Shown: one piece after another, positions 3,634 through 31,792 of the stretch | How the letters are laid out: every line of letters begins with the position of its first letter | Numbering within the stretch: the first letter of the stretch is position 1 | Assembly (NCBI RefSeq): GCF_004010195.1 | Contig: NC_057718.1 | Span: forward strand, 99,621,822 to 99,654,963 | DNA: 33,142 nt | DNA from: Chiloscyllium plagiosum | Taxonomy: Eukaryota | Direction of reading: 5' to 3' | Position numbers and translations under genes: made by a program | Notes under the pieces: generated by a model | Database searches by the model: none | What the model was told of the DNA's origin: nothing | The model's input: only the letters and a program-made list of their open reading frames with translations

Positions 3634-3770
3634 GTTCTGAAGAAGGGTCACTGGCCCCGGATCATTAACTCTGCTTTCTCTCCACGGATGCTGCCAGACC
3701 TGCTGAGTCTCTCCAGCAATTTCTGATTTTGTTTCTGATTTCCAGCATCCACAATTCTTTGGTTGTTTTG
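3634..3770 (+). mobile_element. PLE-derived short repeat, family 2, with decayed hammerhead
   Basis: ttCTGAAGAagggtcactggcccc(ggatc)attaactctg...ggatgctgccagacctgctgag...ccagcatcc. The GAAAC core is mutated. Confidence 0.7.
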
Positions 3771-4690
3771 ATCACCACCATGTCATTCTGGCTTTTAGGT
3801 AACTGCTGACACACAGCGATGTGGTTGACTCTTAACTGCTGTCCAATGTGGCCTGGTTACACTCCATTGTCACATTCCTAAGGAAAGCTGGGCATGGACT
3901 ATGAACGTTGGCAGTGACTTTATATTTGGTGAATGAAGAATGCATGAGGAGACAGGTGGAGCAGGCTTACAAAGGAAAGTATGGAAAATAGGTTGGAGTC
4001 AGGAAGATGCCTATGGTTATGATGTGAAAACCTGTCTGAGTGCCAGGATAAAGGGGAGAGAGAGAACAGTGGAAGCATAACGCTGGAAACTCAACAGCAG
4101 AGTTTAGGGTAACCGCCAGTTTGTGGAGGATAGTTTGAGAGAGATTGGTCAAAAGTTCATTGAGTCTGGGAGTAACAAAAAATGATTGATGCTCAGGAAA
4201 GTGAAGGTGACCAGTGAGATGACGAGGTGGGAAAATGGGCGTATGCTAATCTCATACACCCTCCCCCCCTCAGTCGGCCTTCAGGACGTGTGCAACAAAG
4301 ACCAGACAAGGCAAGGTGACCAAGGCTGTCAGAAACTCTGGCCAGAATTCCAATAATCTGTACCCAAACCTGCATCAGTTTTTCACAAAGACGTTTCCAC
4401 AGAGGGCTGACATGTTTAATATGTGGGAATGCTACCCTTGGATGCGACAAGTTAATGGGTGCATGATCTGATAATTATCAACACATTCAGAGATTCATCA
4501 AGAAGGTAGACGCATTATAAACTAATTGATTAGACTCATGTTGTGATTTCCTATGCTCCTAATGTGCTTTAGAATCATAGAGTCATAAAGTCATAGAGAT
4601 GTACAGCATGGAAGCTTAGCCTTCACACAGCCACCTCTCCCTGTCCTTCAAACTGCACCCAACCTCTGTGTGGCAGGGTCCGCAGATCAT

Positions 4691-4821
4691 TCCTGATGAA
4701 GGGCTTATGCCCGAACCATTGATTCTCCTGCTCCTCGGATGTTGCCTGACCTGCTGTGCTTTTCCAGCACCGCACTCCCGACTCTGATCTCCAGCATCTG
4801 CAGTCCTCACTTTCCCCCTCT
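4691..4821 (+). mobile_element. PLE-derived short repeat, family 1, with decayed hammerhead
   Basis: CTGATGAaGGGCttatGCCCgaaccatt... through to ctccagcatctgcagtcctcactttccc. A perfect 9-bp TSD gcagatcat sits at 4682-4690 and 4822-4830. Confidence 0.85.
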
Positions 4822-5489
4822 GCAGATCATACACGGGGGTCTTCAGCCCAGCACAAAGCCCATCAAAACAGCCTGGAAGAGAGAAGGGGTGCGGGCCCTC
4901 AAACCTGAGCAACATACTCAAGGGGAAGGGAGCGACAGTGAGAGGGGAGAGACGGGGGTGGGAGTGATGTAGAATGGGCAACGATTGGCACACCACCCTC
5001 AGATGTGTGCTCGAAAGATTGTGCTGCGATATCGCAGAGGCCAGGAGGCACGGCCATCTCGCAAATTGAACGGACAAAGCTGTTGATAATCAGCAGGAAG
5101 GATTAGCATTATCGCTGACTGCCTGACCCCTAGCAGTGATGTAACTGCATCTAAATACATCCAGCTCCGTCAGGAATGACCTCAGGCACTGGAGCAGCAG
5201 AGGTCATGGGTTAGGATGGAGGGACCTCTGAGGCATTAAGCCATTCTCATGCGTAATCAGGCTGACAGTTTAGTCTGAGCAGGGACCAATGTTTATTTTT
5301 GCTTTGTTTTGTGATGAGCCGACACAAAGTAATTCCTACTGCAGCCGGGAGAAGTGTTCCCCCGATCACTGTGTGAGACCGGACATGGATAAGCCAGGGG
5401 CTACATATTCAATACAGTCTTCCTGTCACTGCCCTCACACCTCACTCCCATCCACTGCGGTCAACAGAGGAGTTTTGACCTTGAAAGTC

Positions 5490-7012
5490 ATAAGGCAAAT
5501 GGAACGTTGGCCTTTATTTCACAGGGAATGGATTATAAAAGTAGGAAGGTTTTGTTAAAGCTATTCAAGGGACTAGTCAGATTACAGAATGAGAAGTCAT
5601 AGTCTTAGGATAAGGGTGAGCAAATTTAAAACAGAATTGAGGAGAAACTACCTCTCCCTAAAGGGTTTGTGGGATTCCTTACCCCTACGTGTGGTGGATG
5701 CTGGGACAGTGGTTAAATTCAAGGAGGAGTTCGAGAAATTTTTAATTGGTTGAAGGGTCAAGAGGAGAAGGCAGGAAAATGGGAGTGAGGAACAAATCAG
5801 CCATGATCGAATGGCGGAGCAAACTCGATGGGCCGAATGGCCCAATTCTGCTCCTGTATATCTTATGAGCGATACAGCTGGAATATTGCGAATAGTTTTC
5901 GGCCCCTTATCTGAGGAAAGATATCCTGACATTGGAGACTGTCCAGAGAAACTATGCTGATCCTGGGTATGGAGGGAACTGTCCTATGAGGAGAGGTTCA
6001 GCATGTTGGACTTCCCCTCATTGGGGTTCAGAAGAATGAAAGGAGACCTTTTATTGAAACTGACACGATTGTTCAGAGTTTGACAGGGTAAAGCACAAAG
6101 GTGGTTTCCCCTTGTGTCATACAGTCATAGAGTCATAGAGATACACAGCACAGGAACAGTCCAACTCGTCCATGCCAACCAGATATCCTAACCTAACCTA
6201 GTCCCATTTGCCAGCACTTGGTCCCTTTAAACCCTTTTTATTCATATACCCATCCAGATGCCTTTTAAATGATGTAATTGTACCAGCCTCCACCACTTCC
6301 TCTGGCAGCTCATTCCATACACGTACCACCCTCTGTGTGGAAAAAGTTGCCCCTTAGGTCCCTTTTAAATCTTTCCCCTCTCACCTTAAACTCTACTTTT
6401 GAATTCCCCCATCCCAGGAAAGAACTAGCTATTTACTCTATCCATGCCCCTCATGATTTTATAACCCTCTATAACGTCACCCCTCAGCCTCCGATGCTCC
6501 AGGGAAAACAGCCCCAACCTGTTCAGCCTCTCCCTGTAGCTCAAATCCTCCAACCCTGGCAACATCCTTGTGAATCTTTTCTGAACCCTTTCAAGTTTCA
6601 CAACATCCTTCCTGTGGTAGGGAGACCAGAATTGAACGCAGTGTTTCAAAAGTACCCGAACCAATGTCCTGTACAGCCGCAACATGACCTCCCAACTCCT
6701 GTACTCAATGCACTGACCAATAAAATGGAGGACTACAGGATGTTAGAATAAGGGCCCCACCTTAAAGACAGATGAGGCAGAATTCCTTCTCAGAGAAAGT
6801 AGTTATTTTTTTTTTAAATCTTGACTGCAGAAAGCTGTTGAGGCTGAGTCATTAAGCATACTTAAGGCTGGGATAGACAGATTTTTAATCAATAAGGGAA
6901 ATCAAGGGTTTTGGGGAAAAGGCAGGAAAGTGGAATTGGGGCTTATCAGAACAGCCTTGGTCTAACTGAGTAGATTCAATGGGCTGAATAGCCTTGTTAT
7001 GCTCCTATGTCG
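5490..7012 (+). mobile_element. Old CR1 fragment split by two younger CR1 insertions (~5590-5868 + and 6116-6723 -)
   Basis: KANGTLAFISQGMDYKSRKVLLKL (5492-) continues at ~5875 as QLEYCE..FRPLI. The element resumes after 6723 and ends in a CR1 3' UTR at ~7010. Confidence 0.75.
6116..6723 (-). mobile_element. CR1/HER1 LINE 3' fragment
   Basis: ORF 6425..6685 MLRLYRTLVRVLLKHCVQFWSPYHRKDVVKLERVQKRFTRMLPGLEDLSYRERL is the classic CR1 ORF2 C-terminus, followed by a (tctatgac)n tail. Confidence 0.95.
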
Positions 7013-7675
7013 TAAAGAGGGAAAGGTTTCAGAGTCACATTGCAAAGGAGGAAAAACAGAAAAGTAACATAACTTGGTCACGAGATATAATCATTCCCTC
7101 CTTTCAAGCTGTTCCAATCTGCTTTTCCCACACGGTCAGCTGTTAGTTCCATCAGTTTATTTGAATTGAAAGTTCCAAGCGGAGTGAAACTTTGCTAGCC
7201 ATGGAATCAGGTCATCTGTCCCATGACCCTGGGACAAAGAATGGCTGGATAGAAGGTTTCCATAACCGTATCTCCAAGAAACATTGCAAAGTGCCTCTCA
7301 CAAGATTGGTACGCTTTCTTAACTCTTGGGAAAAATTTGCAGTGTTTCCAAAAGCCACAAATACAAGGAATGGATATCGATCGAGGCTGGGATGTGAATT
7401 TATCTCCTTGCCCTTCATTGACAGGATAGCTGAGGATTGGCCATGTTGAGGAGGTCTGAGCTGCCCTTGATAATGGGTCTCTGATTTCATTACAATGGTG
7501 CTGTAAATGGCCCACGGGCAGAGTATGTGAGTAATCCTTCTCCTGAACGCAAGGTAGCATATCAGCCATGGCCTTCCCAGATATGATGATGGGTCTGGTG
7601 GCATTATCACTCGAGTAGTAATCTGGGGATCTGGGTACAAAAGCTACCCTGCTGTGAATTCAAGAACAAGTGAAC

Positions 7676-8423
7676 AACTTATGAAGAAAGGTTGACAGAG
7701 CTAGGGCTTTTCTCGTTGGAGTGAAGAAGGATGAGAGGTGACTTGATGGAGGTATACAAGATGATGAGAACATAGACAGAGTAGATAACCAGAGACTTTT
7801 CCCAGGGTGGAAATGGCTATCAGGAAGGTGCATAATTTTAAGCTGATTGGACCAAGGTTTAGGGGAGATGTCAGAGGTCGATTCTTTACACAGAGAGTGG
7901 TGGGTGTGTGGAATGCACTGCCAGCTGTGGTACACCTCTGGGACACCCGGACCAACCAACCCAACCACCCTGTAGCTCAACATTTCAATTCCCCCTCCCA
8001 CTCCACCAAGGATATGCAGGTCTTTGGACTCCTCCATCGTCAGACCACAGCGAAACGACGGTTGGAGGAAGAACACCTCACCCTCCGCCTAGGAACCCTC
8101 CACCCACAAGGGATGAACTCGGATTTCACCAGTTTCCTCATTTCCCCTCACCCCACCCTGGATGCTGCCTGACCTGCTGCGCTTTTCCAGCAACATTTCC
8201 ATCTCTGATCTCCAGCATCTGCAGACCTCACTTTCTCCTGCCAGCAGTGGTAGTAGAGTCAGAGACATTAGGGACGTTTAAGTGACTCTTGGATAGGCAC
8301 ATGGACGATAGTAAAATGAAGGGTATGTAGGTTAGTCTGATCTTAGAGTAGGATAAAAGGCCGGCACAACATCGAGGGTCGAAGGGCCTGTACTGTGCTG
8401 TACTGTTCCATGTTCTATGTTTT
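7676..8423 (+). mobile_element. CR1/HER1 LINE 3' fragment interrupted by a PLE
   Basis: HNFKLIGPRFRGDVRGRFFTQRVVGVWNALPA[insert]VVVESETLGTFK, with tail gtactgttccatgttctatgtt. Confidence 0.9.
7933..8237 (+). mobile_element. Penelope-like element fragment: C-terminal GIY-YIG endonuclease remnant plus family-1 terminus
   Basis: HLWDTRTNQPNHPVAQHFNSPSHSTKDMQVFGLLH...RRLEEEHLTLRLGTLHPQGMN matches the PLE endonuclease C-terminal pattern (PVAxHF..H...E...L.GLN). A 15-bp TSD ctgccagc(t/a)gtggta sits at 7918-7932 and 8238-8252. Confidence 0.85.
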
Positions 8424-9569
8424 AAGTCTGGAATGAAGGGTTTAATGGTGACTGTGAAACTGCTGTTGATTGTTGAGGGAATCACCCTCTGGGGAAGGAA
8501 ATCTGCTCTCCCTGTTTAGCATAGTCCAGGCAGACTTTTGACTCTTAAGTTGCAAACAAAAAAAATCACATTGAATGATGGAGCCAGCTATATATCTGAC
8601 ACGTGCTCCCACTTCCTGTGAGACATGTACTGAAGGGAGGGTGGGGAGGCTAGGCAGAAAGGAAGTGTGGGGATTCGAGCTGGGTTCAGATAATTGGAAT
8701 GGAATTGTGGGTAGGGGCTGGTGGATGGAGATTGAAAAACATGGAAGTTTGGTTGCCAGAAGATGGGGATCTTAAGGCTGAACACGGGTGGTATGAATTT
8801 CCTTTCAGGTGTAGTCAGAAGGAGAATGCACCTGGCTCCACGTTCAGGTAAATCACTTCCCCTTTGGGGCTCAGTGTGTCTGGTTGCTCTGAGTGTGATG
8901 GTGTCAATGAATGAAACATGGAGGGTGATCATCTAATCACAGAGGCCTGAAGGATTACTTCAGGCCTGGGTAAAGAAATTTTGGCTTGTCCTTATCCCAG
9001 ATGAAGAGCCATTGGCATGTAGCCTTGAGGTGTGCACCTATTCTCTGGCTTCCATTTTGGAATCCTCATTCCGGCAGTGCTTGGAAAACCAAAATGATAT
9101 AAATCCTCACTCAATGCCCAAATCCCAGTTGGAGCATTAATATCTATTCCAACAACACCCCCCCAACAATGTTTCAATGAGACAGCTGTAAGTAGCTGAA
9201 AGGACTTGATTCCAGAATCTTCTAACTCGTGACGGTCTTAGCTACCTTCACAGCTTCAGTCATTGTATCATACAGAGGCCTTAAAGATATATCTTCACAG
9301 TAGACTTTCAAAGGTACTTAGTCAGTGTAAAATGAACAAGTTAATGCAGCGAGGCATATCATTGGGCAGCTTCAGTGTGAAAATAGAGCAGTGTGCAGGG
9401 ACGGGATTATTGGTCAGCCGTGATTCCATCAAATGTGTCATGTGAGCGGGTATTGGGACTGCAGCCTCATAGACGTGCCATTGGGTGAGCTCACCACCAG
9501 CATGAGGGTAACATGCTTCTCTCGCTTGTGAGGGAGGGGTTACACCCCCCCACCCCCCCACCCCCCCAC

Positions 9570-10022
9570 CCGATGATAGAGGAGTTTTCACCCCCATGAT
9601 AGAGGGATTCCCCCTGCTGTGATAGAGGGATTCCCCCTGCTGTGACAGAGGGGTTTCCCTCCCTCTGTGATAGAGGGGTTTCCCTCCCTCTGTGATAGAG
9701 GGTTTTCCCTCCCTCTGTGATAGAGGGGTTCCCCCTGCTGTGATAGAGGGGTTTCCCTCCCTCTGTGATAGAGGGATTCCCCCTGCTGTGATAGAGGGAT
9801 TTCCCTCCCTCTGTGATAGAGGGGTTTCCCTCCCCTGTGCTAGAGGGATTCCCCCTGCTGTGACAGAGGCGTTTACCTCCCTCTGACAGAGGGGCTTCCC
9901 CCCGTGATAGAGGGGTTTTCCCCGCTCTGTGACAGAGGCGTTTACCGCCCTCTGACAGAGGGGCTTCCCCCCGTGATAGAGGGGTTTTCCCCGCTCTGTG
10001 ATAGAGGGGTTCCCTCTCCTGT
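9570..10022. repeat. Minisatellite of 21-25-bp units (tgtgatagaggggtttccctccctc / tgtgatagagggattccccctgc)
   Basis: About 18 tandem variants. A 69-bp trimer is duplicated at 9858-9995. Confidence 0.95.
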
Positions 10023-10074
10023 GGTGGAAAGTGTTCCAAGATTATAATAGTGGAGTATTTCATCAGAGAGAATA

Positions 10075-10222
10075 CAATGCCTACAGTGTGGAAACAAACC
10101 CTTTGGCCCAACAAGTCCACATCAACCCTCCGAAGAGCATCCCACCCAGACCCATTCCCCTACATTTACCCCGATTCATGCACCTAACCTATACATGCCC
10201 ATTGGGCATTAAGGGCAATTTA
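10075..10222 (-). mobile_element. HE1 SINE 3' fragment
   Basis: cctacagtgtggaaaca...ggcccaacaagtccac...gggcaatttag matches the HE1 tail. Confidence 0.8.
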
Positions 10223-11506
10223 GAACGAACATGTAAACGAGACTTCTATTCGAAGTTGATGTACAGGGATCCTTGCCTGGAGACAAGCAGTTGAGAAGGG
10301 CAAGCACTAAGGTGAGGGGGAAAATGAAATCAGCAGATGTGGGCAAGAGAGGGTGCTGGAAAGGAAGAGCTATCTGATGGCCTTGCGTTGTCACATGTGT
10401 CACCCGATGCAGCCTCTGCAGAGAGAGGGTTCTCACTGGAAGGTGACAGACAAGCCCAAACTCAGTCCACTGTCTGCCCAGATAGGGGGATGCCATCACC
10501 TCTGTCAACACAGATGGTGCCTACATTTCCCTGTCAGCCAACTGTGCCCATCCTCTGAAATGAAACAGTCCTGTCAGATGTGTTTGAGAGATATGAGAAG
10601 GAAAGATATCAATGCAAAGCTTTGTCGTTCAGCTTTACCGGTCATTTGGCTTGAACTATGATGTTGTAATTTCTCAATATTATCCAAGGGATGATAACAA
10701 ACTATTAGAAAGTATGTTTGTCACAACAAAGTGTATAATTGATGGTTAGGTAACTCAAGCAGTCAATATAATCCATGCACATTGTCCCTTTGTAGTCTGA
10801 AACAAGATCATTTCAAAGTGGTGTTTTTGATGTCATTTAAATCATTGCCACTTTCACTTTGATTAATGAACTAACTGCAAGTTTGATGGGCTTACCTTTA
10901 TCTATATGAAGAACCCCCTTCATTTCTCATTCTTAATGATGGCTTAAATTATATTGTTCAAAGAGTCTTGAGCCTCTCTGTTCAGCCTGAGGTTGAAATT
11001 AGGAACTGTCAATTATCCCTTTGAGGTTTAATGTTGAGATCTTCCCCCGCAAGTTCCCTCGGTGCAGCCTCTGTTCCCTCGGTGATTAGAATAAACATGG
11101 TGCTCCATCAAACTCTTGTGTAGAGTTCTCTCGTTTGCCTCAGGTAATATTTTCATGAGGCCAATTTCAATCAGTTAGTCAGGTCTAACTTGAACTCATG
11201 TAAGTCACATCCGAGATATGGTGGTCCAGGGGTATTCTCAATCAATTCGTAACCCAGAACCTTGGGTTAACGCTGTAGGGTTATGAGTTCTAATCCTGCA
11301 TGAGGTGGGTGGTGAAAATTGAATTCAATATTCACAAAACAGAAGCTTAAGGGTAATAACCTCTGACCGAGCCAGTGATGTCCACACCAGATGAGTGAAT
11401 GGCGATAACTGGTGTTGTTTGTGGTAAAAGCCTATTAGGGTCAGTAATGTCCTTTAGGGAGGGAAATCTGTCATCCTTACCCAGTCTGGACTATATGTCT
11501 GTCCAG

Positions 11507-11783
11507 GAGAAAGTGAGAACTGCAGATGCTGGAGATCAGGGTCGAGAGTGTGGTGCTGGAAAAGCACAGCAGGTCAGGCAACATCCGAGGAGCAGGAGAG
11601 TTTAGGTTTCAGGCATAACCCCATCACCAGGAGGCTGAGGAGCTTCAAGGCAGAGGGGAGGATGTAGGGGGGGGTACAGTGAGAGAAGGACTGATGAAGG
11701 GCTTATGCCCGAAACGTCAACTCTCCTGCTCCTCGGATGCTGCCTGATCTGCTGTTCTTTTCCAGCACCACACTCTCAACTCC
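11507..11783. mobile_element. PLE family-1 inverted pair (minus arm 11507-~11690, plus arm 11691-11783)
   Basis: The arms are reverse complements over about 90 bp. A perfect 12-bp TSD atgtctgtccag sits at 11495-11506 and 11784-11795. Confidence 0.9.
11691..11718 (+). ncRNA. Minimal type-I hammerhead ribozyme core (PLE-associated)
   Basis: CUGAUGA-A-GGGC-uuau-GCCC-GAAA-CG-UC: intact core, 4-bp stem II, palindromic ACGU stem III and a GUC cleavage triplet. Stem I is poorly formed because its 5' side is the inversion junction. Confidence 0.65.
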
Positions 11784-11921
11784 ATGTCTGTCCAGCCACA
11801 CAACAATGGTGTTGATTGCTAGCTGGCCTCGTGACAGGCAATAAATGCTGCCCCCCTCCCAATGATGCTCCACACCTGCCCCTACCAATGGATCAGAAAC
11901 ATGGAATCAGGTCAATTGGAT

Positions 11922-11980
11922 CCTTCAGCATCTTTGAAGATACAGACGGGGTTAATGTTTCAGGTCAATGGTCTTCAGCA
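11922..11980 (-). mobile_element. Decayed PLE family-2-like fragment
   Basis: The reverse complement reads ctgctgaagaccattgacctGAAACattaaccccgtctg...agatgctg, resembling 3634-3700. Confidence 0.5.
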
Positions 11981-11999
11981 GTGCCCCAGTGAAACCTTA

Positions 12000-12265
12000 C
12001 AGTCTCTTGCTCCTTGAACTAAACTCACACAGCTGGGAAACTGGCCCCACTGACCATGTTCCCAAACTAAACTGGTTGCACTTGCCATATCCCCCCCAAT
12101 CCTTTCTATTGTAAGTGTGCATGCACTGACCACTTCCTCTGAATGTTCATTCCACACGCGAACCACTCTCTGTGTAAAAAAGATGACCCTCATGTCCTTT
12201 CTAAAGTTTTCTTCTCTCACCCTAAAATATGTCCCCTTGTTTTGAAATCCCCTTGTTATTCACTT
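12000..12265 (-). mobile_element. CR1 3' fragment
   Basis: ORF remnant FRKDMRVIFFTQRVVRVWNEHSEEVV. Confidence 0.8.
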
Positions 12266-12266
12266 T

Positions 12267-13256
12267 CATAGAACCCCGAGTGTACAGGAAGGACCTACTC
12301 AGTCCACACCCCCACCCCTCCAAAGCGCATCCCACCCAAACCCAGACCCACTCCCTTGCAGTAGATAATTAAGAAAGCAAATGGAATGTTGGTTTTTATA
12401 GCTAAAAGAATAGAATAGAAAGGTAAGGAAGTATTGTTGTAACTGTACAAGGCATTGGTGAGACTGTACCTGGAGTAATGTGCACAGTTTTGGTCCCCTT
12501 ATTTGAAAAAAGATGTAGTGGCATTGGACGGAGTTCAGAGGAGGTTCACTAGATTAATCCCAGAGATGTAGGGTTTGTCTTGTGAAGTGAGATTGAACAG
12601 TTCAGGCCTGTGCTCTCTGGAATTTAGAAGAATAAGAGGAGATCAAATTGAGGTATTCAAGATGATAAAAGGTGTGGATAAAATTAATGAGGAACAGATG
12701 CTTCCCCTTTTGCGGCATTTTGGGACGAGATGTCATAGACTTAGGATGAGGGATAGCAACTTTAAAACAGTGTTGAGGAGAAATTACTTCTGCCAAAAGG
12801 GTTGTGAATCTGTGGCATTCTCTACCCCAAAGTGTGATGGATGCTGGGACAGTGAGCAAATTTAAGGAAGAGTTAGAGAGATTTTTAATTGGTGATGGGT
12901 TGAAGGGATATGGAGAGAAGGCAGTAAAATGGGGGTGGGGTATATCAGCCATGAGAAATGGTGGAGAAAACTCAATGGGCTGAATGGCCGAATTCTGCTC
13001 CTTTACATCTTATGAAATTTTATCCCAAACACCTGCATTTCCCATGACTAATCCACCTCATCTGCACACCCCTGGACACTATGGGCAATGTCCCATGGCC
13101 AATCCACCCTAACATCGTTGGACTGTGGGAGGAAACCCACGCAGACACAGGGATGTTGTGCAAACACCTCGCAAATAGTCACCTGAGTCTGGAATTGAAC
13201 CCAGGTCCCTTGTATTGTGAGGCAGCAGTGCTAACCACTCAGCCACCGTGCCACCC
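12267..13256 (-). mobile_element. HE1 SINE interrupted by CR1 (pieces 12267-12357 and ~13020-13256)
   Basis: The tail piece and the head/V-domain piece are colinear around the LINE. Confidence 0.75.
12358..13016 (+). mobile_element. CR1 LINE 3' fragment
   Basis: KKANGMLVFIAKRIE*KGKEVLL*LYKALVRLYLE*CAQFWSPYLKKDVVALDGVQRRFTRL with in-frame stops, plus a 3' UTR. Confidence 0.9.
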
Positions 13257-14020: not shown

Positions 14021-14130
14021 TGATGAAGGGCTTTTCCTGCTCCTCAGATGCTGCCTGACCTGCTGTGCTTTTTCAGCACTGCACTAATCTTGACTCTAAT
14101 CTCCAGCATCTGCAGTACCCACTTCTACCT
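14021..14130 (+). mobile_element. PLE family-1 short repeat, hammerhead 3' half deleted
   Basis: tgatgaagggctttt|cctgctcctcagatgctgcctgacctgctgtgc...ctccagcatctgcagtacccactt. Confidence 0.8.
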
Positions 14131-15201: not shown

Positions 15202-15875
15202 ACATTTCTGTGATGCTGTGGAGTCCGTGGACCACGTGTATATTGGGTGTGGGCGTTTGCACTCCCTTTTTCATTTTCTCAAAGCCTCCTCCTCTGCTTT
15301 TGGTTGCACTTCAATCCCACGCTCCTGATCTTCGGGCACCCGGTACGGAGGGGGGAGGGCAGGTCTGAAGACCTCCTCGTGGGTCTGCTCCTGGGCCTGG
15401 CCAAACTGGCCATTAACAGGTCCAGGCAACGGGCCGTGGAGGGGGTCGTTAGGGCCGACTGCCTGCCCCTCTTCCGCGGTTACGTTAGAGCCCGGGTGTC
15501 TCTGGAAAAGAAGCACACGGTGTCCACCAACACCCTGGAGCTGTTCAGGGAGAAGTGGGCGCCGCAGGGAGTGGAGTGCATTATTTCCCCCTCCAACTCT
15601 ATTTTGATTTAACCCCTGCCCTCCCCTTCACTGTTTGATCACACAGCATTGCCCTTTGATGTGAAGGGCACGGCTTGTCACTGGCCACTCGGGTGTTTCC
15701 TATCTTCCAGGTGGTGGAAACCGAATAAAGATTCGTACACCTTGTGTCTTTCATTGTCTCTCACACCTGCACACACACAACATGGGGGCTGGGGAAAAAA
15801 TAAGCACTACCGCGGTTAGGCGGTAGTGTGGGGGTAAAATTTAAAACGAAAGGAAAAAAAAGAGAAAGAAAAGAA
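15202..15875 (+). mobile_element. Tx1-clade L1 non-LTR retrotransposon, 5'-truncated
   Basis: Zinc-knuckle remnant FCDAVESVDHVYIGC, one frameshift, then LLLGLAKLAINRSR...FREKWA to a stop at 15612. This is followed by a 3' UTR, AATAAA at 15724, an A-rich tail, and a perfect 12-bp TSD aacaaagacaga at 15190-15201 and 15876-15887. Confidence 0.85.
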
Positions 15876-16074
15876 AACAAAGACAGATCATACTGACTCA
15901 GTGCTGGCTGGTGCTACAGTCAGTGTGTTCCTGGTGGTACCGGAGAGGAGGGTTTCATTGCCTTTCCCCCCCCCCTTGTTTAGGGAAGGAAAAAAAAACC
16001 CAAAATTTTTTTTAAAAAAGACAGACCATCAAAGCAATACAAACACCCATGGCTGCTCTTTGATATCCTGTTAA

Positions 16075-18790: not shown

Positions 18791-18799
18791 TACCTCCCC

Positions 18800-21537: not shown

Positions 21538-22146
21538 CTGTGTATATGTGTGTTTGTGTGGGTGGGTGGGTGAGTGTGTGCGCATATGTGTGTGTGTGAT
21601 GTACATGTGTGTGAGTATGGGTGGTGGGTCTGTGTATTCGGGTGGATGGGTCTGTATGCCTGTGTGTGTGTATATGAGTCTGCATGTGTATAAATACACA
21701 TGGTTTTGTGTGTGTGTTTATGTGTATATGATGAGCACATGTTTGTGTATATATGGAGATGTGTGTGCATATATAAGTGGGTGTTTATGTGTCTGGGTGT
21801 GTTCAAGCATCGTTACATAAGTGGGGCCGTGTATGTATGAATGTGTCTGTGTTTGTGCTTACAATATTTAGGTGTGTGCACATATGTTTGTGAATATATG
21901 GTTGCGTATATGTGTATATGGATGGGAGAGCATGTTTGTATATGGGTGTCAGTGCATGTGGGTGCATGCATGTATATATGGGTGTGCGTGTGTGTGTATA
22001 TATGGGTCTGTGTGTGTTTATGTGTGTGTGTACATGTGCATGTGTATGTGGGTGTGTGTATGTGCGTGCATGTGTATCTGTGTCTATGTGTTTGTGTGTG
22101 GAGGGGCGGGGGTCCATGTGCCTGTGTCTGTGTCTGTATGCATTGT
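21538..22146. repeat. Long degenerate (TG)n/(TA) low-complexity tract
   Basis: About 600 bp of mostly alternating purine-pyrimidine sequence. Confidence 0.95.
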
Positions 22147-22159
22147 GCAACAACACACA

Positions 22160-22430
22160 CCGAAAAGGATGGCCAACATTTTGTACTAACGTCCTAAAAG
22201 CATCCCCGAAGAGGTCAGTCATTCTCGTGAGCGATGGGAAAGAGTCCCTCACCTGTAACCGACCAGAACAGCGAAGGCTCATTCAGGAGAGCACCAAACG
22301 CATTGAGTGTGCTGCTCTGGGAACGTGCAAAGGTGCCTGAGGAAGAGCACATTGCCCCCAGAACCTTCAAGTAGCACTCTCTCCATGGGTGCCAATGTTT
22401 GCACATCAAACATGGGACTTACCACCCAGC
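22160..22430 (+). mobile_element. Ancient RTE-clade LINE 3' fragment
   Basis: NVLKASPKRSVI...ESLTCNRPEQRRLIQESTKRIE resembles the RTE C-terminus (D.LKaSLK...WE.LA.DR..WR..I.EG). MGANVCTSNMGLTTQ resembles a decayed C2H2 finger (C.rvC.SrIGL.SH). Confidence 0.65.
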
Positions 22431-22689
22431 CAGCCTTGAATATGGGACTGCAGCCTATTGATCCATTCACTGCTCCAGCCCACACTTCTTTATCTTATCA
22501 ATAAGAATGCCCTCGATATCAAAAGCACAGTTATGAGCTGGTCAGCATGTTGACAACAGAATAACTACAGAGGCAGGTGAAGACAGTGAGGGAATAAATG
22601 ATTTGCAGAAGAATTATTTCAGGTCAGCCTTGAAGTTGGGAAAAGGCATGGGAAATCAAGATGAAAATTAAGTTTGGAAAACAGCACCC

Positions 22690-23000
22690 TTTATTATTAT
22701 TCATTCACGAGATGTAGATGTGATTGACAAAATCAACGTTTAATGTTCCACTACTCATCACCCTGCGTGGTAAGTTGCCTCCTTGATTTAGTTATTATTA
22801 CACTGAGGGTGGTGTTATTGCCATTTGTTATCCTAACTACCCAGAGGGCAGTTCAGGGTCAACCGCAAGGCTGTAGGTCTGGAGTAACAAGTAGGCCAGA
22901 CCAGGTAAGGATGGCAGATTTCCTTCCCTAAAGGTCATTTATTTTTGACAATAAGTGATGTTTTCTTTAACCTGCTTAATGAACAGGATGTTCTCAGCTG
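22690..23000 (-). mobile_element. SINE family B, decayed
   Basis: gtaggccagaccaggtaaggatggcagatttccttccctaaagg. Confidence 0.75.
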
Positions 23001-23590
23001 AGTTTAAACTCCACCAGCCTCAGGATTACAAACCCAGTGATGTTCCTATGACATCTTACTCTCTTGAACAGATCCCTCAGTACATCACTGTGACTGGGTG
23101 TCACATATGGGCTAGAGTCAGCACATTTACTTCCCCACAGACATCAATGAGCCAAACATATTTTTAAGACATTTCCTAATTAATCTGTGCAGCAAATGTC
23201 ACCGCACATACCTCTGGAGGATTGGGATTTGAACCCAGGCTGTCTAGGTCCAGAGGTAAGGACATTACCATTATGCCACAACAGATGTACAACACTCAGT
23301 AGTTTCATAGATGCCACTGCTGAGATTAGCATTTTATTTCTGATTAACGGTGTTCATTAGATTTAAATGTCCCAGGTGGGATTCGAACTCACGTTCTAAG
23401 ATTGTTTGTCCAGCCCTCTGGGTTAGCAGCCCAGTAGTGGCTCACTAAACCCCTACCCACAAAAAGCAGAGATTCACACAGACCAAACTGAATCAGCCCA
23501 GGGAGGCTGTGGAAGGGAATCTGTGAGACACATCAGGCTGTGATGTTAACACAAGAATGCCAGAACATGCTAAAGGCTAAGGGGCTGGAT

Positions 23591-23604
23591 GCGCCCCCTT
23601 GTGG
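23591..23604 (-). promoter_or_regulatory. Candidate CTCF-binding core motif
   Basis: The minus strand reads CCACAAGGGGGCGC, one mismatch from CCACYAGGGGGCGC, in non-repeat sequence. Confidence 0.45.
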
Positions 23605-24266
23605 GTTCAGTTGGGACAACCACTGACACGGGTCTTCTGTTCACACACTCTGGACCCATGTGCATTTCTAACACAGACAGCTTTGCAAGTGTAAAACTGA
23701 TAGTCATTGCTACACGCCAGAAGAAGAGAAATTGTTATCAGTGTCACAACATAACCACAGCCGATTAATTCTGATTTGGCAACAGGCAGACTGAATAGTA
23801 TTTAAATACGCAGCAGCACCCAGGTTTAGAAAGCATGATTGAGCTCTACATAAAACTCTTCACCATCTGAACACCAGCCCAGATCAAGGTGCTGTCAGTA
23901 GGACCAGTACAGAGACTGGTGACCCTGCTCAGCAAAAGCCCTGTGTTGTCACCTCTGTGCTCAGAGGTCAGGCGTTACTTTTTTTATTTTGTGTGTTGAG
24001 TTTGTCATTGGCGGGCTCATTAAATCTTACTAGGCTTGAGAAGGTAGTGGTGAGCTGCCATTTTGAACTACTGCAGTCCTTCCATATACTAGAATTGATC
24101 TTTCTCTGCACCTTCTCTGTAGCTGTAACATTCTGTTCCATTACCCAGATATACTTAGGTAGGGTGCAATTCATTTCAATAGCACACAAAACAATACTTT
24201 TCACTGTATCTTGGTACATGTGGCAATAATCAATCAAATCAAGTTAAATATTCTGTAGATAGACCT

Positions 24267-24590
24267 GCATGGTGGCTCAGTGGTTAGCACTGCTGCCTCA
24301 CAGTGTCAGGGACCACGGTTTGATTCCACCCTCAGGTGACTGTCTGTGTGGAGTTTACACCCCGTGTCTGCGTGTGTTTCCTCCCACAATCCAATGATGT
24401 GCGTGTTAGGGTGAATTGGCCATGCTAAATTACCCTGTAATGTTCAAGGATGTGTAGATTAGGTGCATTAATCAGGGGTAAATGTAGAGTAATAGGGTAG
24501 GAGAATTGGTCTGGGCGGATTACTCTTTGGAGGGTCAGTGTGGACTTATTGGGCCAAATGGCCTGTTTCCACACTGTAGGGATTCTAAGT
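24267..24590 (+). mobile_element. HE1 SINE, near full length
   Basis: A/B boxes, V-domain and CR1 tail ggcctgtttccacactgtagggattcta. Confidence 0.95.
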
Positions 24591-24591
24591 T

Positions 24592-24965
24592 CAATGTTAT
24601 TAGGGAGGGAATATACAGGACTTTGACCCAGCGACAGTAAAGGAACAGCAATTATATTTCCAAGTCAGGATGGTGAGTGGCGTGGAGGGGAACTTGCAGG
24701 TGGTGGTGTTCCCATGCTGCCCTAGGAAGCGGTCATGAGTTTAGATTGTACTTTGGTAAGTTGCTTGTAGGTGGTACACACCACTAGCACTGGGCCCAGT
24801 GTTGGAGGGAGTAAATGCTGAAGGTGGCAGATGGGGTGCCAGTCAAGAGGGGCTGTTTTACCCTGGATGGTGTTGACCTTCCAGATAAGTGGGCAATATT
24901 TCATCACGCCTCTGACCTGGGTCTTATAGCAGGTAGACAGGCTATTGGGGGAGGGTCATGAGGCG
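24592..24965 (-). mobile_element. LINE fragment of the same family as 28360-28930
   Basis: The reverse complement aligns by eye with 28420-28800 (IQGKTA, catcctgacttggaaatata). Confidence 0.75.
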
Positions 24966-25372
24966 GTGACTGGGAGAGGAAATGGGTAACAGCTGGTGTT
25001 CCACTTTCCTGCTGCTTTTGGCAGTTACTTAGGAACTACTGGAGAGAGACTGAGGTCCATTTTACTCCTGCCTAGGTGTGCAGTGCTGCAGATAGATGGG
25101 TTTCTTGGTTGATTTTTGTGCCTGTTAGTTATGTTGCTTTTTGTTGCTCATCTTAACACAGCCAAAAATGCAGAAAATCCAATCTGGTTCTCTATTCTTT
25201 GGTCTGGAAATTGGCCAGGAACTGTCATACTCTGGACACCCCAGTTTGGGCTGTGCAGGGGGTAACAAATGACAATTTATCCTCACTCCACAATAATATA
25301 CTCACTGCAAACATTCAGTCCCCCCCACACCTTTGGGACAGCTCAATTCGGCACACACAGGCTGATATGTTA

Positions 25373-25845
25373 AAAATCACACAACACCGGGTTATAGTCC
25401 CACAGGTTTATTTAGAAGCACTAGCTTTCAGAGCACTGCTCCTTCATCAGGTAGCTGTGGAGCAGGATCACAGAATTTATAGCAAAAGATCACAGTGTCA
25501 TGCAACTGAAACGATATATTGAACAAACCTCGATTGCTGTTAAGTCTTTCATCTTTTAGAATGGGTTGTAGGTTTCGGTTCATTAAATCCCAGAACTTCT
25601 TTTAAGTCACATTCTCAAGATAACTTGAGGTTTTATAAAAAAAAGTAACATATCAGCTCAGACAATGCATTAAGGTGTGAGGTTACAGTGTGTCTCTATC
25701 CCAATCTTGAGTCAGACTGGTTCAATTTCCAAAGTAGGAATTTATGAAATATTACATGGACTGATTGCCTGCAGATTGTGTGCTTTTTGAGCAAAATAGA
25801 ATATATCTGCAAATATAATTCTGCAAATGCAAATTCACACCACAG
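25373..25845 (-). mobile_element. PLE-derived repeat, family 3
   Basis: Hammerhead near its 3' end, terminus ...ggactataacccggtgttgtgtgattttt, and a possible TSD ctgat(a/g)tgtta at 25362-25372 and 25847-25857. Confidence 0.7.
25418..25455 (-). ncRNA. Minimal type-I hammerhead ribozyme (PLE-associated)
   Basis: RNA 5'-GCUAC-CUGAUGA-A-GGAGC-agu-GCUCU-GAAA-GC-UA|GUGC: intact core, 5-bp stem II (one G-U), palindromic AGCU stem III and a short stem I. Confidence 0.7.
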
Positions 25846-26044
25846 ACTGATGTGTTAGACTGTCTGCCTCAACACGAATGTATTAACTCTCGTGATCCTC
25901 GATGGGTCAAAATAATCACATTTTTCAACCTAAATACTGGAGCTGCTATCAACTGTAAGCCTCACAGCTGACTGCATGTTACACAATGATACACAACAGC
26001 ATGGATGCACTCACTGTGGAATGGCAGAATGTGATTTTGAATTT

Positions 26045-26402
26045 TTTAAAAATTCATTCCCAGGATGAGCGTGTCGCTGGCTAGGCCAGCATTTATTGCC
26101 CATCCCTAATTGCCCAGAGGCGGTTAAGAGTCAACCACATTGCTGTGGGTCTGGAGTCACATTTAGACCAGACCAGGGTAGGGATAGCAATATCCTTCCC
26201 TAAAGTACATTAGTGAATGAGATGGTTTTTTTTTTCCCCTAACAATTGACAATGGATTCATGGTCATCATTAGACTCTCTCTTGTTAATTTTTTAAAAAT
26301 TGAATTGAAGTTCAATTTGCCATGGGTGGAATTTTGGTTCCCAGAGTATTACGTGGGTTTCTGGATGAAGAGTCCAACAATAATACGACTAGGCGATCAC
26401 CT
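26045..26402 (-). mobile_element. SINE family B, full length
   Basis: Reverse complement of 16075-16428. Confidence 0.85.
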
Positions 26403-26707
26403 CTCTCTGCTATCCTGGATGTGAACGTGCATCGCGATGTGACAATATCATTTTTAATTTTTGAAAATAATGTACAGTGTCTCTCAGTCCAGCCCTGGGG
26501 CTGAGGCAATTGGACAAAGGGGTGACAGGGTTAGCAGGGAAGGGAGTGTTGTGTAAGGTAATGGTTATGAAAGGGTTAACCTGTGAGCTAAGTGAAGTTC
26601 CGCCGACTCTGATACATTGTGCAGTTACTGGGCCGGGTATCAGGCAGTTTTGGACACTCATTGTCCATAAGGCAGGAGCCCACGTGTTCTATGTGCTTCT
26701 TTTTTTA

Positions 26708-27011
26708 AATAGAGTGCATACGGGTGTGGAAACAGGCCGTTCAGGCCAACAAGTCCATACCGACCCTCCGAAGAGCAACCCACCCAGACCCAATTCCCCT
26801 AACCTAACTAAGGCAGCTAACCTACACATCCCTGAACACTATGGGCAATTTAATCATGGCCAATCCACCCTAACATCTTTGGACTGCCGGAGGAAACCCA
26901 CACAGACATGGAGAGGGTGTGCAAACTCCACACAACAGTCCCCCGAGGCTGGAATCAAACCTGGGTCCCTGGTGCTGGGAGGCAGCAATGCTAACCACTG
27001 AGCCACCATGC
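26708..27011 (-). mobile_element. HE1 SINE
   Basis: Head, V-domain and tail present in reverse. Confidence 0.9.
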
Positions 27012-27504
27012 AATAGTACTCATAGCCCAGACTTAATGTAACCCATATATGTCTATAGTTGCTGAGATGTAATAAATTACATTTTGTTCCCTAAGACAGG
27101 CATCTCTTCTAATGAGAGTTATTCCTGGACCATCCCTCTTCTGTTGGTCCATGGTCTATCTTCCACCACAACCAACTGAACAGCCCATAAGACTGGCATA
27201 GGAGAGGTGACTGGGAGCAACTCTTTACCACTGTTTGGGTCTTGACAGAGTGTGGATTCCTTCCTTTAAGTTAATTGGTTCAGATGCAATATGAACACCT
27301 CTGGCATAGGTGGGATTTGAGCCCCAGTTCTTCTATCCTAAAGATGGGGATACTACCACTGCAATAAGGATCCCTCCAGCTGATGCATTTTATTGCAACA
27401 GGGCAACAACAATTCCCTTCTCGTCGGTGTTAGAACAGGGAGCTGGATGAACTTTGAACTTTCAAAGTTGAAAATTCGTTAGTTGTAATGGCTTGAGAGG
27501 AACC

Positions 27505-27792
27505 CTAGCACTGCAGCCTCACAGCACCAGGGTCCCAGGTTCGATTCCACCCTCGGGTGACTGTCTGTGTGGAGTTTGCACGTTCTCCCTGTCTCTATGT
27601 GGGTTTCCTCCAGGTGCTCTGGCTTCCTCCCACAGTCCAAAGATGTGCAGGTTAGGGTGGATTGGCCATAGGAGATTGACCAGTGTTCAGGCAAGGTGGA
27701 TTAGCCATGGAAAATGCAGGGTTACAGGGATAAGGTGGGGTGCTCTTCAGAGAGCTGGAGTGGGCTGAATGGCCTGTGGGGTTTCTATGATT
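27505..27792 (+). mobile_element. HE1 SINE
   Basis: B box ggttcgattcc and V-domain. Confidence 0.9.
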
Positions 27793-27994
27793 TTATCAGG
27801 CACTAGGCTCCTAACTAACACATTTCAGTTAGAGTTATAACGCAGCGAAGTCATTTTCGTAAAATGGCTTGGAAGAATAAATTTGACCAAAAGCAGGTAC
27901 AATGCGAGGCAATTCCAATGGGTCAATAGTGTGTCTCACTGTGAGGAGGATGAGCTGAAAACAGAAAAGCACAACAGGCTTCAGGAAACCTTCA

Positions 27995-28245
27995 GCAAAG
28001 AATAGCACCATGGATGATGGTGTTCTCCAAGGATTAGTGTTAGGAGGTAGCAATTGATAGTGTCCAGAATCTGTTCCTTTGGTATGTTGACTTCAGCCCA
28101 CAGAAGAGCTTTTCACCTCACAGTGTGTCGTGATAACAGTATCACTGCGGGAGATAAGAGGATTGAAGAGGCTCGATGTAGACGCGACCTCGATAAGATG
28201 GGTCTGTTTTCAGTCAAGGCAAATTGTTCAAGCCTGGTACTTGAG
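27995..28245 (+). mobile_element. Very old CR1 RT remnant
   Basis: GVLQGLVLG (~GVPQGSVLG), CRDNSITAG (~FADDTKLGG) and RRDLDKMG (~QRDLDRLG) occur in the expected order and spacing. Confidence 0.55.
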
Positions 28246-28359
28246 GGGTCGGCCTGGCCAGGGGTGCTGAAGTAAGAAGCAGCCAACTCTCCAGGTTAAC
28301 ACACTGGGGGCACAGTGATTAACAATGATATGGAAGCACTGATAGAGGCTGGAAACACC

Positions 28360-28930
28360 ACGGCAAGTAACTCACCTCCTAACTGCCCCAAAAGCCTGTC
28401 CCACCATCCACAAGGCATGAGTCAGGAGAGTGATGGAATACTCCCCACTTGACTGGATGGGTGCAGCTCCAACAACACTCAACACCATCCAGGACAAAGC
28501 AGCCCCCGCTTGATTGGCAACACATCCACAAACATCCCCCCCCCCCACTCCCACAACACCCCCCACCCCCACCACCACCGATGCTCAGTAGCAGCAATGT
28601 GTACCAGCTACAACAACTCACCAAGGCTCCTTCAACAACACATTCTAACCTCTACCATCTAGAAGGACAAGGGCAGCAGATACATGGGAGCACCACCCCT
28701 CTGTAAGTTCCCCTCCAAGCCCCTCACCATCCTGAGTTGGAAATATATCACCGTTCCTTCACTGTTGCTGGGTCAAAATCCTGCAATTCCCTCCCTAAGG
28801 GCATTGTGGGTCAACCCACAGCACACGGACTGCAGCGGTTCAAGAAGGCAGCTCACCCCCACCTTCTCAAGGGGCAACTAGGGACAGGCAATAAATGCTG
28901 GGCCCAGCCAGTGGTGTGTTCATCCCATTA
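28360..28930 (+). mobile_element. CR1/L2/Jockey-group LINE 3' fragment, probable partner of SINE family B
   Basis: SLSTIHKA*VRRVMEYSPLDWMGAAPTTLNTIQDKAAPLDW and VAGSKSCNSLPKGIVGQPTAHGLQRFKKAAH. The tail ggcaactagggacaggcaataaatgctgg is shared with SINE B. Confidence 0.8.
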
Positions 28931-29142
28931 AAGAATTTGTAAGAAAAACAAACAGAACTGATGAATACAGGTTACTCACTGGATCTCAAGGCCATCACTA
29001 CAAGATAGTCACTAATGTGCAATTCAGGAGAAACGTGCTAACCCAGAGTTTGCTTAAGAAGTGGAACTAACTACAGTCAGAAGGGGTTGCGGCAAATACA
29101 TTTAAGGAGAAGCTGGGAAAATGCACAGACGGGTATGGAAGG

Positions 29143-29665
29143 GCATAGGTTTAAGGTGAGAGGGGGATGATTTAAAAGGGACACAAGGGGCAACGTTTTA
29201 ACACAGAGGGTGGTGTGTGAATGGAATGAGCTGCCAGAGGAAGTGGTGGAGGCTGGTACAATTACAACATTTAAAAGGCATCTGGATGGAGATATGAATA
29301 GGAAGGGTTTAGGGAATATGGGCCAAATGCTGGCAAATGTGACTAGATTAATTTAGGATATCTGGTCAGCCTGAGAAGGTGAGGACTGCAGATGCTAGAG
29401 ATTACAGTCGAGAGTGTGGTGCTGGAAAAGCACAGCAGATCAGGCAGCATCTGAGGAGAAGGAGAATAGACGTTTTAGATATAAGCTCTTCATCAGGTTT
29501 CATTCCTGATGAAGGATTTTTCCCTGAAACATTGATTCTCCTGCTCCTCGGATGCTGCCCGACCTGCTGTGCTTTTCCAGCACCACACTCTCGTATCTGG
29601 TCCGCATGGACGAGTTGGACCGAAGAGTCGGTTTCTGTGCTGTACATCTCGGCGACTCTATCTCT
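29143..29665 (+). mobile_element. CR1/HER1 3' fragment interrupted by a PLE inverted pair
   Basis: HRFKVRGG*FKRDTRGNVLTQRVVCEWNELPEEVVEAGT. The 3' UTR resumes at 29594. Confidence 0.9.
29371..29593. mobile_element. PLE family-1 inverted pair with back-to-back decayed hammerheads
   Basis: ...cttcatcagg-tttcatt-cctgatgaag... at the centre. TSD tatctggtc(a/c)gc at 29359-29370 and 29594-29605. Confidence 0.9.
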
Positions 29666-29675
29666 GTCGTAAACA

Positions 29676-29870
29676 TGTGGTCGATAAAGTGTGACTCTGG
29701 AAAAAGTGCAGCAGGTCAAGCCGCATCAGAGGAGCAGGAGAGTCAACATTTCAGGTCCTGATGAAGTGTGCTGGCCTGCTCCTCAGATGCTGCCCGACCT
29801 GCTGTGCTTTTCCAGCACCACACATTATCCACTCTGACCTTCCAGCATCTGCAGTCCTCACTATCTCCAA
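29676..29870. mobile_element. PLE family-1 inverted pair (older)
   Basis: Minus arm ~29680-29756, plus arm starting tcctgatgaag at 29756. Possible TSD gtaaaca at 29669-29675 and 29871-29877. Confidence 0.8.
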
Positions 29871-31032
29871 GTAAACACTTATTGTGAGATTTTACCCTGT
29901 GCTCCTTGACTCTATATCAAGGGGAAACAACCCTTCTGCACCTATCCTGTCAATCCCCTTCAGAATCTTGGGTATTTAAATAAGGCTGCCTCTAATTCTT
30001 CTATATTCCAATGAGTACACATCCAATCTACTCCAGCTCTCCTCGTAAGACAGTCCCTCCATTCCTGAAAGCAGCCTAGTTATCCTTCTCCAGACATCCT
30101 CCAATGTCAATATATCTTTCCTTTGATAAGGATCACCCATTCCCGACATCCCTATCCAAGATCAACCTCCACCCTGGGAATTCTCACACAGTTGCCCACC
30201 GAGAGGTGACGCTGAAAGGGTCAGTGTTTCTCAGTTCTGTCCCCTTCACCTCCATCCACTTCTTCCCAATGATGGAGCTCTTTTCCCACACTCTGCTGTA
30301 GGCGCAGCGAGTGACGAGCCAAGCCAGGACTCAGGTCACGAAAGCCAACTCCTTTTGGACAAACTCTGCTTCCTTGGGATTCAGTTTCACCCCAGGACAA
30401 GGTAAAGGGAGACCCTCAGAAACACGTGGACTCCCCCAGGGATTTTAAGCTGTCCTGAGAGAGGCCGCCCAGAAACTGCTTACCTGACACGGGCATGATG
30501 TGAAATTAAAGAACACTTCAGCTGTGTAACAGGTCGTGATAGGAGCTCATTAGTTTCAGAGTCTATCCCAGACTCTTTGCTGCCTTTCCCCCTATAAATC
30601 AAAACTTTCTCCGATGTGCTCATTCTGCTGCCTTGGCATTCCAATGGTCTGAGATTCAACCATCTCAACGTTGGCTTTCTGCAGCGGTGTGGAATGTGGT
30701 TCCTGCCCCTTCCTTGACCTTGGGAACCCATGAGCCAAGAACTACAAACAGATGGACTTTGTTTTAATTTTTTTATGTATGATTTTTGTTATTAATACAG
30801 GCACCTAGAGTAATGCAGCCTGGTAGCTCAGTGGGTAGCACTGCTGCCTCACGGCGCCAGGGACCTGGGTTCAATTCCACCCTCAGGTGACTGTTGGTGT
30901 GTTCTCTGAGGGTTTGCTCTGGTTTCCTCCCACAGTCAAAATGTGCAGGTTAGGGTGGATTGGCTGTGCTGAATTGCCCTGTAGTGTCCAGGTTAGCCTG
31001 GTTAGGTGGGTTAGCCATGGGAAATGCCTGAT

Positions 31033-31664
31033 AGAACATAGAACAATACAGCACAGAACAGGCCCTTCGGCCCTCGATGTAGCGCCGACCTGTGAACTAT
31101 TCTCAGCTCGTCCCCCTACGCTATCCCAAGGACTGCTTATCCAAGGACTGTTTAAATCTCCCTAATGTGCCTGAGTTAACTATGTTGGCAGGTAGGGCAT
31201 TCCATGCCCTTGCCACTCTCTGAGTAAAGAACCTGCCTCTGACATCTGTCTTAAATCTATCACCCCTCAATTTGTAGTTATACCCCCTCGTACACGCTAA
31301 CGACATCATCCTAGGAAAAAGACTCCCACTCTCCACCCTATCTAATCCTCTGATCATCTTGTATGTCTCTATTAAATCCCCTCTTAGCTTCCTTCTGTCC
31401 AATGAGAACAGACCCAAGTCCCTCGACCTTCACTCCAGACCAGACAACATCCTGGTAAATCTCCTCTGCACCTTTTCCAATGCATCCACATCCTTCCAGT
31501 AATGTGGCGACCAGAACTGTACACAATATTCCAGATGCAGCTGCACCAGCGTTTTGTATAGTTGCAGCATGATATTGCGGCTCCGGAACTCAATCCCTCT
31601 ACCAGTGAAACCTAACACACCATATGCCTTCTTAACAGCACTATCCACCTGGATGGCAACTTTC
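31033..31664 (-). mobile_element. CR1/HER1 LINE 3' fragment
   Basis: VKKAYGVLGFTGRGIEFRSRNIMLQLYKTLVQLHLEYCVQFWSPHYWKDV and LRGDLIETYKMIRGLDRV...WNALP, with a (atgttct)n tail. Confidence 0.95.
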
Positions 31665-31792
31665 AGGGCTTTTGCCTGAAATGTTAAGGTTTTTTTTCCC
31701 CACTGCTCCTCAGATGCTGCCTGACCTGCCATGCTTTTCCAGCACCACACTCTCGACTCTAATCTCCAGTATCTGCAGCCCTCACGTTCCCT
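31665..31792 (+). mobile_element. PLE family-1 short repeat (its first bases ctgat stranded at 31028-31032)
   Basis: agggcttttgcctgaaatgtt...gatgctgcctgacctg...ctccagtatctgcagccctcac. Confidence 0.8.

Follow-up and report, generated by a model that had tools for sequence, protein, structure and literature searches.

Along a 33,142-nt stretch of the Chiloscyllium plagiosum genome (hereafter the window), short repeats headed by a hammerhead ribozyme-like motif recur, and the question they raise is whether they form a retrozyme-like, non-autonomous class of their own, as an earlier note on this DNA had proposed, or are by-products of Penelope-like elements (PLEs). Our analysis suggested that they are probably dead, short insertions of the terminal module (the pseudo-long terminal repeat, pLTR) of endonuclease-bearing (EN+) PLEs, most likely copied from element RNA by the parent reverse transcriptase (RT)/GIY-YIG protein and not by a separate retrozyme cycle. 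Such a separate class was not supported, in view of a copy bounded by target-site duplications (TSDs) that runs from the end of a GIY-YIG open reading frame (ORF) into the tail of the repeats termed family 1, of the occurrence of copies as monomers or head-to-head pairs without tandems, of copy ends that lie off the predicted cut site, and of 3' ends and inverted arms that match PLE anatomy. The interpretation in the earlier note was partly supported, since its PLE origin, hammerhead type, TSDs and abundance stood and its separate class did not.

Probable Penelope-like origin of the insertions

All ten insertions that had been listed were present at the positions given for them, one of them (11507-11783) being shown below as its two arms.

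3634..3772, plus strand: unit of family 2, the sister of family 1; hammerhead has lost GAAA; TSD not found; ends approximate
4691..4820, plus strand: family 1 tailed monomer; starts 2 nt before the core; GAAA mutated; 12-bp TSD with 1 mismatch
7933..8238, plus strand: PLE copy truncated at its 5' side; codes for a GIY-YIG C-terminus from 7933 to about 8130, followed by the tailed end, the hammerhead between them being lost in an internal deletion; 15-bp TSD with 1 mismatch
11507..11690, minus strand: tailed family 1 arm; hammerhead decayed; core preceded by a pyrimidine-rich stretch of 58-60 nt
11691..11783, plus strand: inverted tail-less arm; ends at unit +93; the sole family 1 head with an intact minimal hammerhead
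11922..11978, minus strand: family-2-like fragment, degenerate and weak; direct repeat of 8 bp around 11931-11972
14021..14129, plus strand: family 1 tailed monomer; stem II and GAAA deleted; TSD not found
25373..25846, minus strand: family 3; intact minimal hammerhead (core at 25450), preceded by about 395 nt that match no PLE protein and followed by a short 3' part; 11-bp TSD with 1 mismatch
29371..29593: head-to-head pair with both starts at the edge of the hammerhead; tailed arm on the minus strand (29371-29497), tail-less arm on the plus strand (about 29501-29593) ending at +88; 12-bp TSD with 1 mismatch
29676..29870: head-to-head pair; tail-less arm on the minus strand from unit +18, tailed arm on the plus strand from 29758; 7-bp TSD without mismatch (weak)
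31028..31792, plus strand: family 1 tailed monomer, split inside the core by an insert of about 630 bp (about 31033-31664); 11-bp TSD

The copy at 7933 starts in an open frame and, still between its TSDs, runs into the family 1 tail, having lost the ribozyme, as had been noted before, to an internal deletion. Its translation from 7933-8160 agreed at 51 of 60 residues (85%) with the C-terminal end of P0002, a protein of Chiloscyllium punctatum. This protein has a sub-threshold GIY-YIG match and 94 longer relatives, most of them annotated with an RT; in a Pfam check of two, the relatives carried RVT_1 and GIY-YIG. The GIY-YIG scores, 17.7 and 20.8 bits, lie below the cut-off of 22.6. A long RT-bearing ORF (P0004) also exists in Chiloscyllium. 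Because the 7933 copy joins the end of a GIY-YIG ORF to the family 1 tail, family 1 is the 3' end of an RT- and GIY-YIG-bearing PLE. The elements behave like EN+ PLE insertion units, and family 1 belongs to these. The Penelope origin put forward earlier is thus supported by this coding remnant, the insertion anatomy and the TSDs.

Other protein searches were negative. The 76-aa piece of the 7933 copy gave no Pfam match when searched alone, tblastn with 96 PLE-type proteins across the window matched only the 7933 piece with RT absent from the window, and blastx of the units gave no N-terminal PLE match (best E 0.068). Family 3 showed no match to the 96 PLE-type proteins or Pfam and no likeness to family 1 outside the core; its PLE origin is presumed, since the hammerhead (plus the TSD) is what links it to these elements.

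Within the window, BLAST with the 4691 copy as query showed family 1 to consist of ten arms in seven insertions, 78-91% identical to the query, and matched the family 2 copy at 3634 more weakly. TSDs of 7-15 bp, claimed for most family 1 copies, were found in six of the seven insertions; the insertion at 11507-11783 is bounded, both arms together, by one 12-bp TSD with no mismatch, and that at 31028 by 11 bp with no mismatch (alternatively 13 bp with 1). The search for TSDs at 14021 (family 1) and 3634 (family 2) found none. In a control of 300 random position pairs, a score of at least 9 was reached by 10 pairs and of at least 7 by 23, so the 7- and 8-bp repeats are weak.

The ten insertions measured 42-56 (11922), 109, 130, about 132, about 139, 195, 223, 277, 305 and 474 bp, and together occupied about 2,040 bp, or 6.2% of the window, at a density of 10 per 33 kb. 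Accordingly, the first description of the locus was confirmed in part. The insertions and the family 1 TSDs held, together with only a minority of the intact cores (see below); the units said to be 130-280 bp long ranged from less than 60 to 474 bp; and saturation of the window was not confirmed, a tRNA-type SINE (short interspersed nuclear element) having about as many loci here. The count of three families was also revised. The 3634 copy aligned with family 1 throughout the unit (score 89 vs a shuffle maximum of 45), family 2 was rejected as an independent family, and the 11922 piece is a degenerate fragment with a weak family-2-like alignment (38 vs a shuffle maximum of 27). By alignment, family 2 is a sister of family 1, homologous to the PLE terminal unit.

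Ends of the copies

Two fixed 3' ends, 33-40 nt apart, were found in family 1: seven arms ended at about +120 to +128, and three inverted arms at +88, +93 and about +92. All three inverted insertions (3/3) consisted of one tailed arm and one inverted tail-less arm inside a single TSD. The 5' starts fell within -5 to +2 of the core in 7 of the 10 family 1 arms, the exceptions being 7933 (in the ORF), 11632 (58-60 nt further) and 29757 (+18). Under a best-case geometric truncation model, the P value of this focus was about 3e-8, and 3e-4 for 3 of the 4 non-inverted insertions, although the interval from -5 to +2 was picked post hoc and the inverted arms are not independent, which weakens the argument from the focus. 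The discreteness claimed for the units thus has some foundation in the 5' ends, which are focused and not continuous.

These starts sit about 28 nt upstream of the cut site, so the 5' ends were not made by self-cleavage. Cleavage as their source was rejected, no copy ending at the cleavage site.

Between the two arms of the 11507 insertion, a pyrimidine-rich (minus strand) stretch of 58-60 nt at 11633-11690 had almost no match elsewhere in two public DNA runs at 80% likeness; it may be a divergent upstream part of the pLTR or captured filler.

Hammerhead motif

Most copies had been said to begin with an intact core. Judged by eye, the whole core (CUGANGA, a paired stem II, GAAA and NUH) was kept by only 2 of the 12 heads, 11691 on the plus and 25450 on the minus strand, and at these two the anatomy supported the proposed minimal type-I hammerhead with palindromic stem III. 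The 11691 head has the core, one extra A, a 4-bp stem II, GAAA and the palindrome ACGT, with the predicted cut site after unit +28, and the 25450 head has the same layout with a 5-bp stem II of different sequence and the palindrome AGCT. Stem II and the stem III palindrome (ACGT in family 1, AGCT in family 3) differ in sequence yet pair, an apparent covariation between the two families as judged by eye, with decayed copies breaking pairs and MAFFT shifting family 3 by one column. A loose-end consensus of many contigs from public runs restored the intact family 1 head, from which it follows that the master element carried an intact hammerhead.

The check with Rfam covariance models, which the earlier note had called for, gave no hammerhead match on the window (E up to 5) or on the two best heads (E up to 10); weak Rfam matches to microRNAs and small nucleolar RNAs were rejected as chance or fold-back effects. 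A strict scan for core, stem and GAAA gave 2 matches against a shuffle maximum of 2, the extra A being disallowed and 11691 thus under-scored. The bare CTGANGA string occurred 30 times, with 25.7 ± 4.6 expected, and its count, being at chance level, was rejected as hammerhead evidence. Minimum free energy folds showed no hammerhead shape as monomer, as expected for minimal hammerhead ribozymes (min-HHRs), and were not used as evidence. The hammerhead assignment rests on anatomy, and cleavage is predicted.

PLE min-HHRs are marked by one additional nucleotide ahead of stem II, a closing G-C pair and a palindrome at positions 15.2-16.2 (PMC4209133). The heads found here share these marks with the min-HHRs of metazoan PLEs, together with the short helix I. 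The motifs are mostly single and dispersed in both, and opposite-strand pairs 100-700 bp apart are known there too (PMC4209133). The same source gives 4,000-9,000 motifs in coelacanth and Xenopus, whereas the abundance here seems well above that, contig counts not being copy numbers. Unlike in the anole element PAc, an ATG in the core opens just a 17-codon frame here.

Pattern scans for copies outside the host gave 0 matches in viral contigs and 0 in a first metagenome scan. Five metagenome and five prokaryote loci matched only the 23-34-nt motif, with no PLE protein match, and were dropped as chance.

Abundance and ends in public sequencing runs

Four of 24 public runs were compared with positions 11490-11700 of the window at 80% likeness. 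The genome-wide test of 5' ends is weakened by this reference copy, in which the head is decayed and the adjoining 58-60 nt found hardly any match. The unit was matched by 85,746 contigs in run X1 and by 77,484 in run X13, which bears another organism label. With some 80,000 matching contigs per DNA run, the very high abundance proposed before was upheld: organisms under at least two labels carry the unit in great abundance, contig counts and summed depth not being equal to copy number. Among the loose ends listed for the two DNA runs, those with long flanks were found at 11505, where the tailed end lies, and at 11541-11550, close to the tail-less end; among the joints listed, strand switches reached 11632-11633, the hammerhead edge.

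In the poly(A) single-cell run X21 (about 2% of the run), 3,235 of 12,955,460 records matched the unit, in both orientations. No pile-up of starts or ends was seen in the X21 reads, a poly(A) library being ill-suited to short or circular RNA, and the pattern fits passive read-through. At position 11626, a variable place of the core, a CUGAAGA-type variant was present in about half of the RNA reads reaching it and in about 1% of the DNA contig depth; another subfamily may be over-represented in RNA, and family 2 reads could be the cause. Several tail-to-tail strand-switch joints, from 11503-11509 to 11541-11551, were also observed among the joints listed for the public-run contigs (2-7 contigs each), and could come from tandems of a palindromic unit, from self-insertion at the tail or from a circularised intermediate.

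Discussion

Insertions of EN+ PLEs are described with 5' truncation, an inverted pLTR, an optional tail of 30-40 bp and TSDs of 8-10 bp (PMC3846280; PMC8557442; PMC11167929). The units of the window are like them in the link to a GIY-YIG ORF end, the hammerhead in the pLTR, the two 3' termini 33-40 nt apart, the inverted tail-less arm and the TSDs of 7-15 bp, and differ in being very short and very numerous, with 5' ends clustered at the hammerhead edge. Both DNA strands are nicked and extended by PLE protein, which begins reverse transcription within the RNA at two sites, one on either side of the tail; the anole PLE enzyme inserts uncleaved RNA in vitro, ribozyme activity being unnecessary (PMC11167929). 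In the copying that we propose, the element's own protein would prime at one or both internal RNA sites, one-site priming giving a monomer and two-site priming a head-to-head pair. The cDNA would mostly halt at the 5' edge of the hammerhead, probably either because the template has its start at this point, with priming in the transcript's 5'-proximal pLTR and run-off at its end, or because the RT stalls at a folded or protein-bound ribozyme. Self-cleavage plays no part in defining the copy ends.

A bolder version of this scheme can be offered tentatively, and we would sooner bet against it than for it. It holds that the mobility of shark PLEs yields mainly run-off cDNA, primed in the 5'-proximal pLTR of an RNA that starts at the edge of helix I. 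The start of the template would then be recorded by units of constant length (90 or 128 bp) and their head-to-head pairs, numbering tens to hundreds of thousands. The hammerhead itself would stay uncleaved and mark the end as a structure or a protein-binding site, and among the short loci there may be non-autonomous masters that propagate themselves.

Several observations weigh against copying from the parent element, besides the post hoc interval mentioned above. Ordinary truncation of PLEs is said to be variable, whereas here the 5' ends cluster closely and the ORF is reached by only 1 of the 7 family 1 insertions. The anole enzyme's preference in vitro for AT-rich sites is not mirrored in the TSDs, and in the protein searches of the window families 2 and 3 showed no coding remnant. 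Some of the loose ends at 11547/11550 are alignment breaks inside the element. The depth across the hammerhead edge fell from 4,922 to 36 in X1 and from 6,515 to 35 in X13, which a dedicated short template would fit too.

Such a template would belong to a dedicated, SINE-like non-autonomous PLE derivative, in which short master loci give an RNA of about 130 nt or slightly more, starting from the hammerhead, that is mobilised in trans by PLE protein. The focused 5' ends, the more than 100-fold drop in depth at the hammerhead edge and the 77,484-85,746 contigs matching the unit speak for it; moreover, pLTRs suffice in cis for mobilisation in trans (PMC3846280), and non-autonomous PLEs exist in Chlamys (PMC8557442). 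However, the ORF-bearing copy at 7933 is 79-94% identical to the short arms, as close as these are to one another (78-93%). The depth drop does not decide between a spike and a spike with a tail of longer copies, because the 58-60 nt on the far side of the edge could be diverged or of foreign origin. Of the contigs breaking at 11597-11601, over half stop within 49-74 nt, compared with at least 255 at the tail end, a weak hint that many of them run on into other repeat sequence. The RNA reads show no pile-up of starts or ends; RNAs of this kind would, however, escape a poly(A) single-cell library. We consider this derivative unlikely, and copying from the parent element remains our preferred account.

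Less likely again, and in our judgement improbable, is that the 5' focus is a splice or recombination mark, with the helix I edge acting as a 3' splice junction or as a template-switch hot spot where copies break. In D. virilis the 3' end of an intron maps to the 5' end of helix I (PMC4209133), and the sequence upstream of the 11632 arm is rich in pyrimidines, an AG lying a few bases ahead of the core. Against this, the window shows no constant short first exon in front of the cores, PLEs keep their introns on copying (PMC3846280), and no splice joint was found at the helix I edge among the RNA matches listed.

Retrozymes are defined by tandem units together with monomeric linear and circular RNA (PMC7229834; 10.64898/2026.07.22.740005). 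Besides canonical hammerheads, Li et al. accept minimal motifs for them too (10.64898/2026.07.22.740005). Non-LTR retrozymes are likewise short, mostly non-coding, PLE-related and equipped with a type I hammerhead, and they differ from the units described here, which show no tandem arrays in the window, no canonical hammerhead and ends away from the cleavage site. Li et al. report them in the sole chondrichthyan sampled, plus many monomer derivatives (10.64898/2026.07.22.740005), and joints going back from 11618 to 11519 were seen in X13 and X17, in one contig each; the type I hammerhead is common to PLEs as well. A cycle in which tandem repeats self-cleave to monomers, circularise and re-insert is highly improbable here and is the least favoured of the accounts, given that no tandem unit occurs within the window, that the copies keep the whole core at their 5' side and stop about 100 nt beyond the cut site as a cleavage-to-cleavage monomer would not, that the hammerhead is minimal, and that head-to-head arms on opposite strands cannot give a cis dimer of like-sense ribozymes. 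Since the window holds no tandem unit and the ends are not defined by cleavage, the elements were not classed as retrozymes.

The elements are real and abundant, and they are of a kind already described in animals and ordinary as a class. A Penelope-like expansion has been annotated in whale shark introns (10.1101/443036), so it is doubtful that standard annotation would label them as unknown repeat. What is notable is the focus of 5' ends at the hammerhead edge, which likely marks the start of the copied RNA. In the literature accessible to us, no description of hammerheads in shark PLEs or of 5' ends focused at helix I was found; subscription papers were outside its scope, and the supplementary species lists of two sources (PMC4209133; 10.64898/2026.07.22.740005) may include sharks. 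The short copies serve as fossil evidence on the role of the hammerhead in PLEs. Copy starts about 28 nt upstream of the cut site provide genomic agreement with the ribozyme-independent insertion seen in vitro (PMC11167929). The very large copy number makes the distribution of 5' ends directly measurable, and curated consensus units would improve the annotation of shark repeats.

Other features of the window

Several further repeats were observed. At 31028-31792, a LINE (long interspersed nuclear element) piece at 31033-31664 lies in the hammerhead core of a family 1 unit, which itself lies in a SINE, and these three nested layers make the order of the insertion events readable; we take the insert to be a CR1/L2-like LINE 3' piece and the host repeat of the 31028 unit to be a SINE. 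The 7933 copy likewise lies within a fragment that is presumably CR1/L2-like. A clean-looking LINE 3' end was found at about 15350-15880, with a C-terminal frame open to 15612 followed by a 3' untranslated region ending A-rich; it gave no Pfam match, and we assume it to be Tx1/L1-like. On the minus strand, 32095-32397 holds a 100-codon open frame of non-repeat look, possibly a host exon, also with no match in Pfam. A minisatellite of 23-25-bp units (about 18 copies, 78% matches) occupies 9574-10023, and a degenerate TG-rich simple repeat of about 600 bp lies at 21539-22140.

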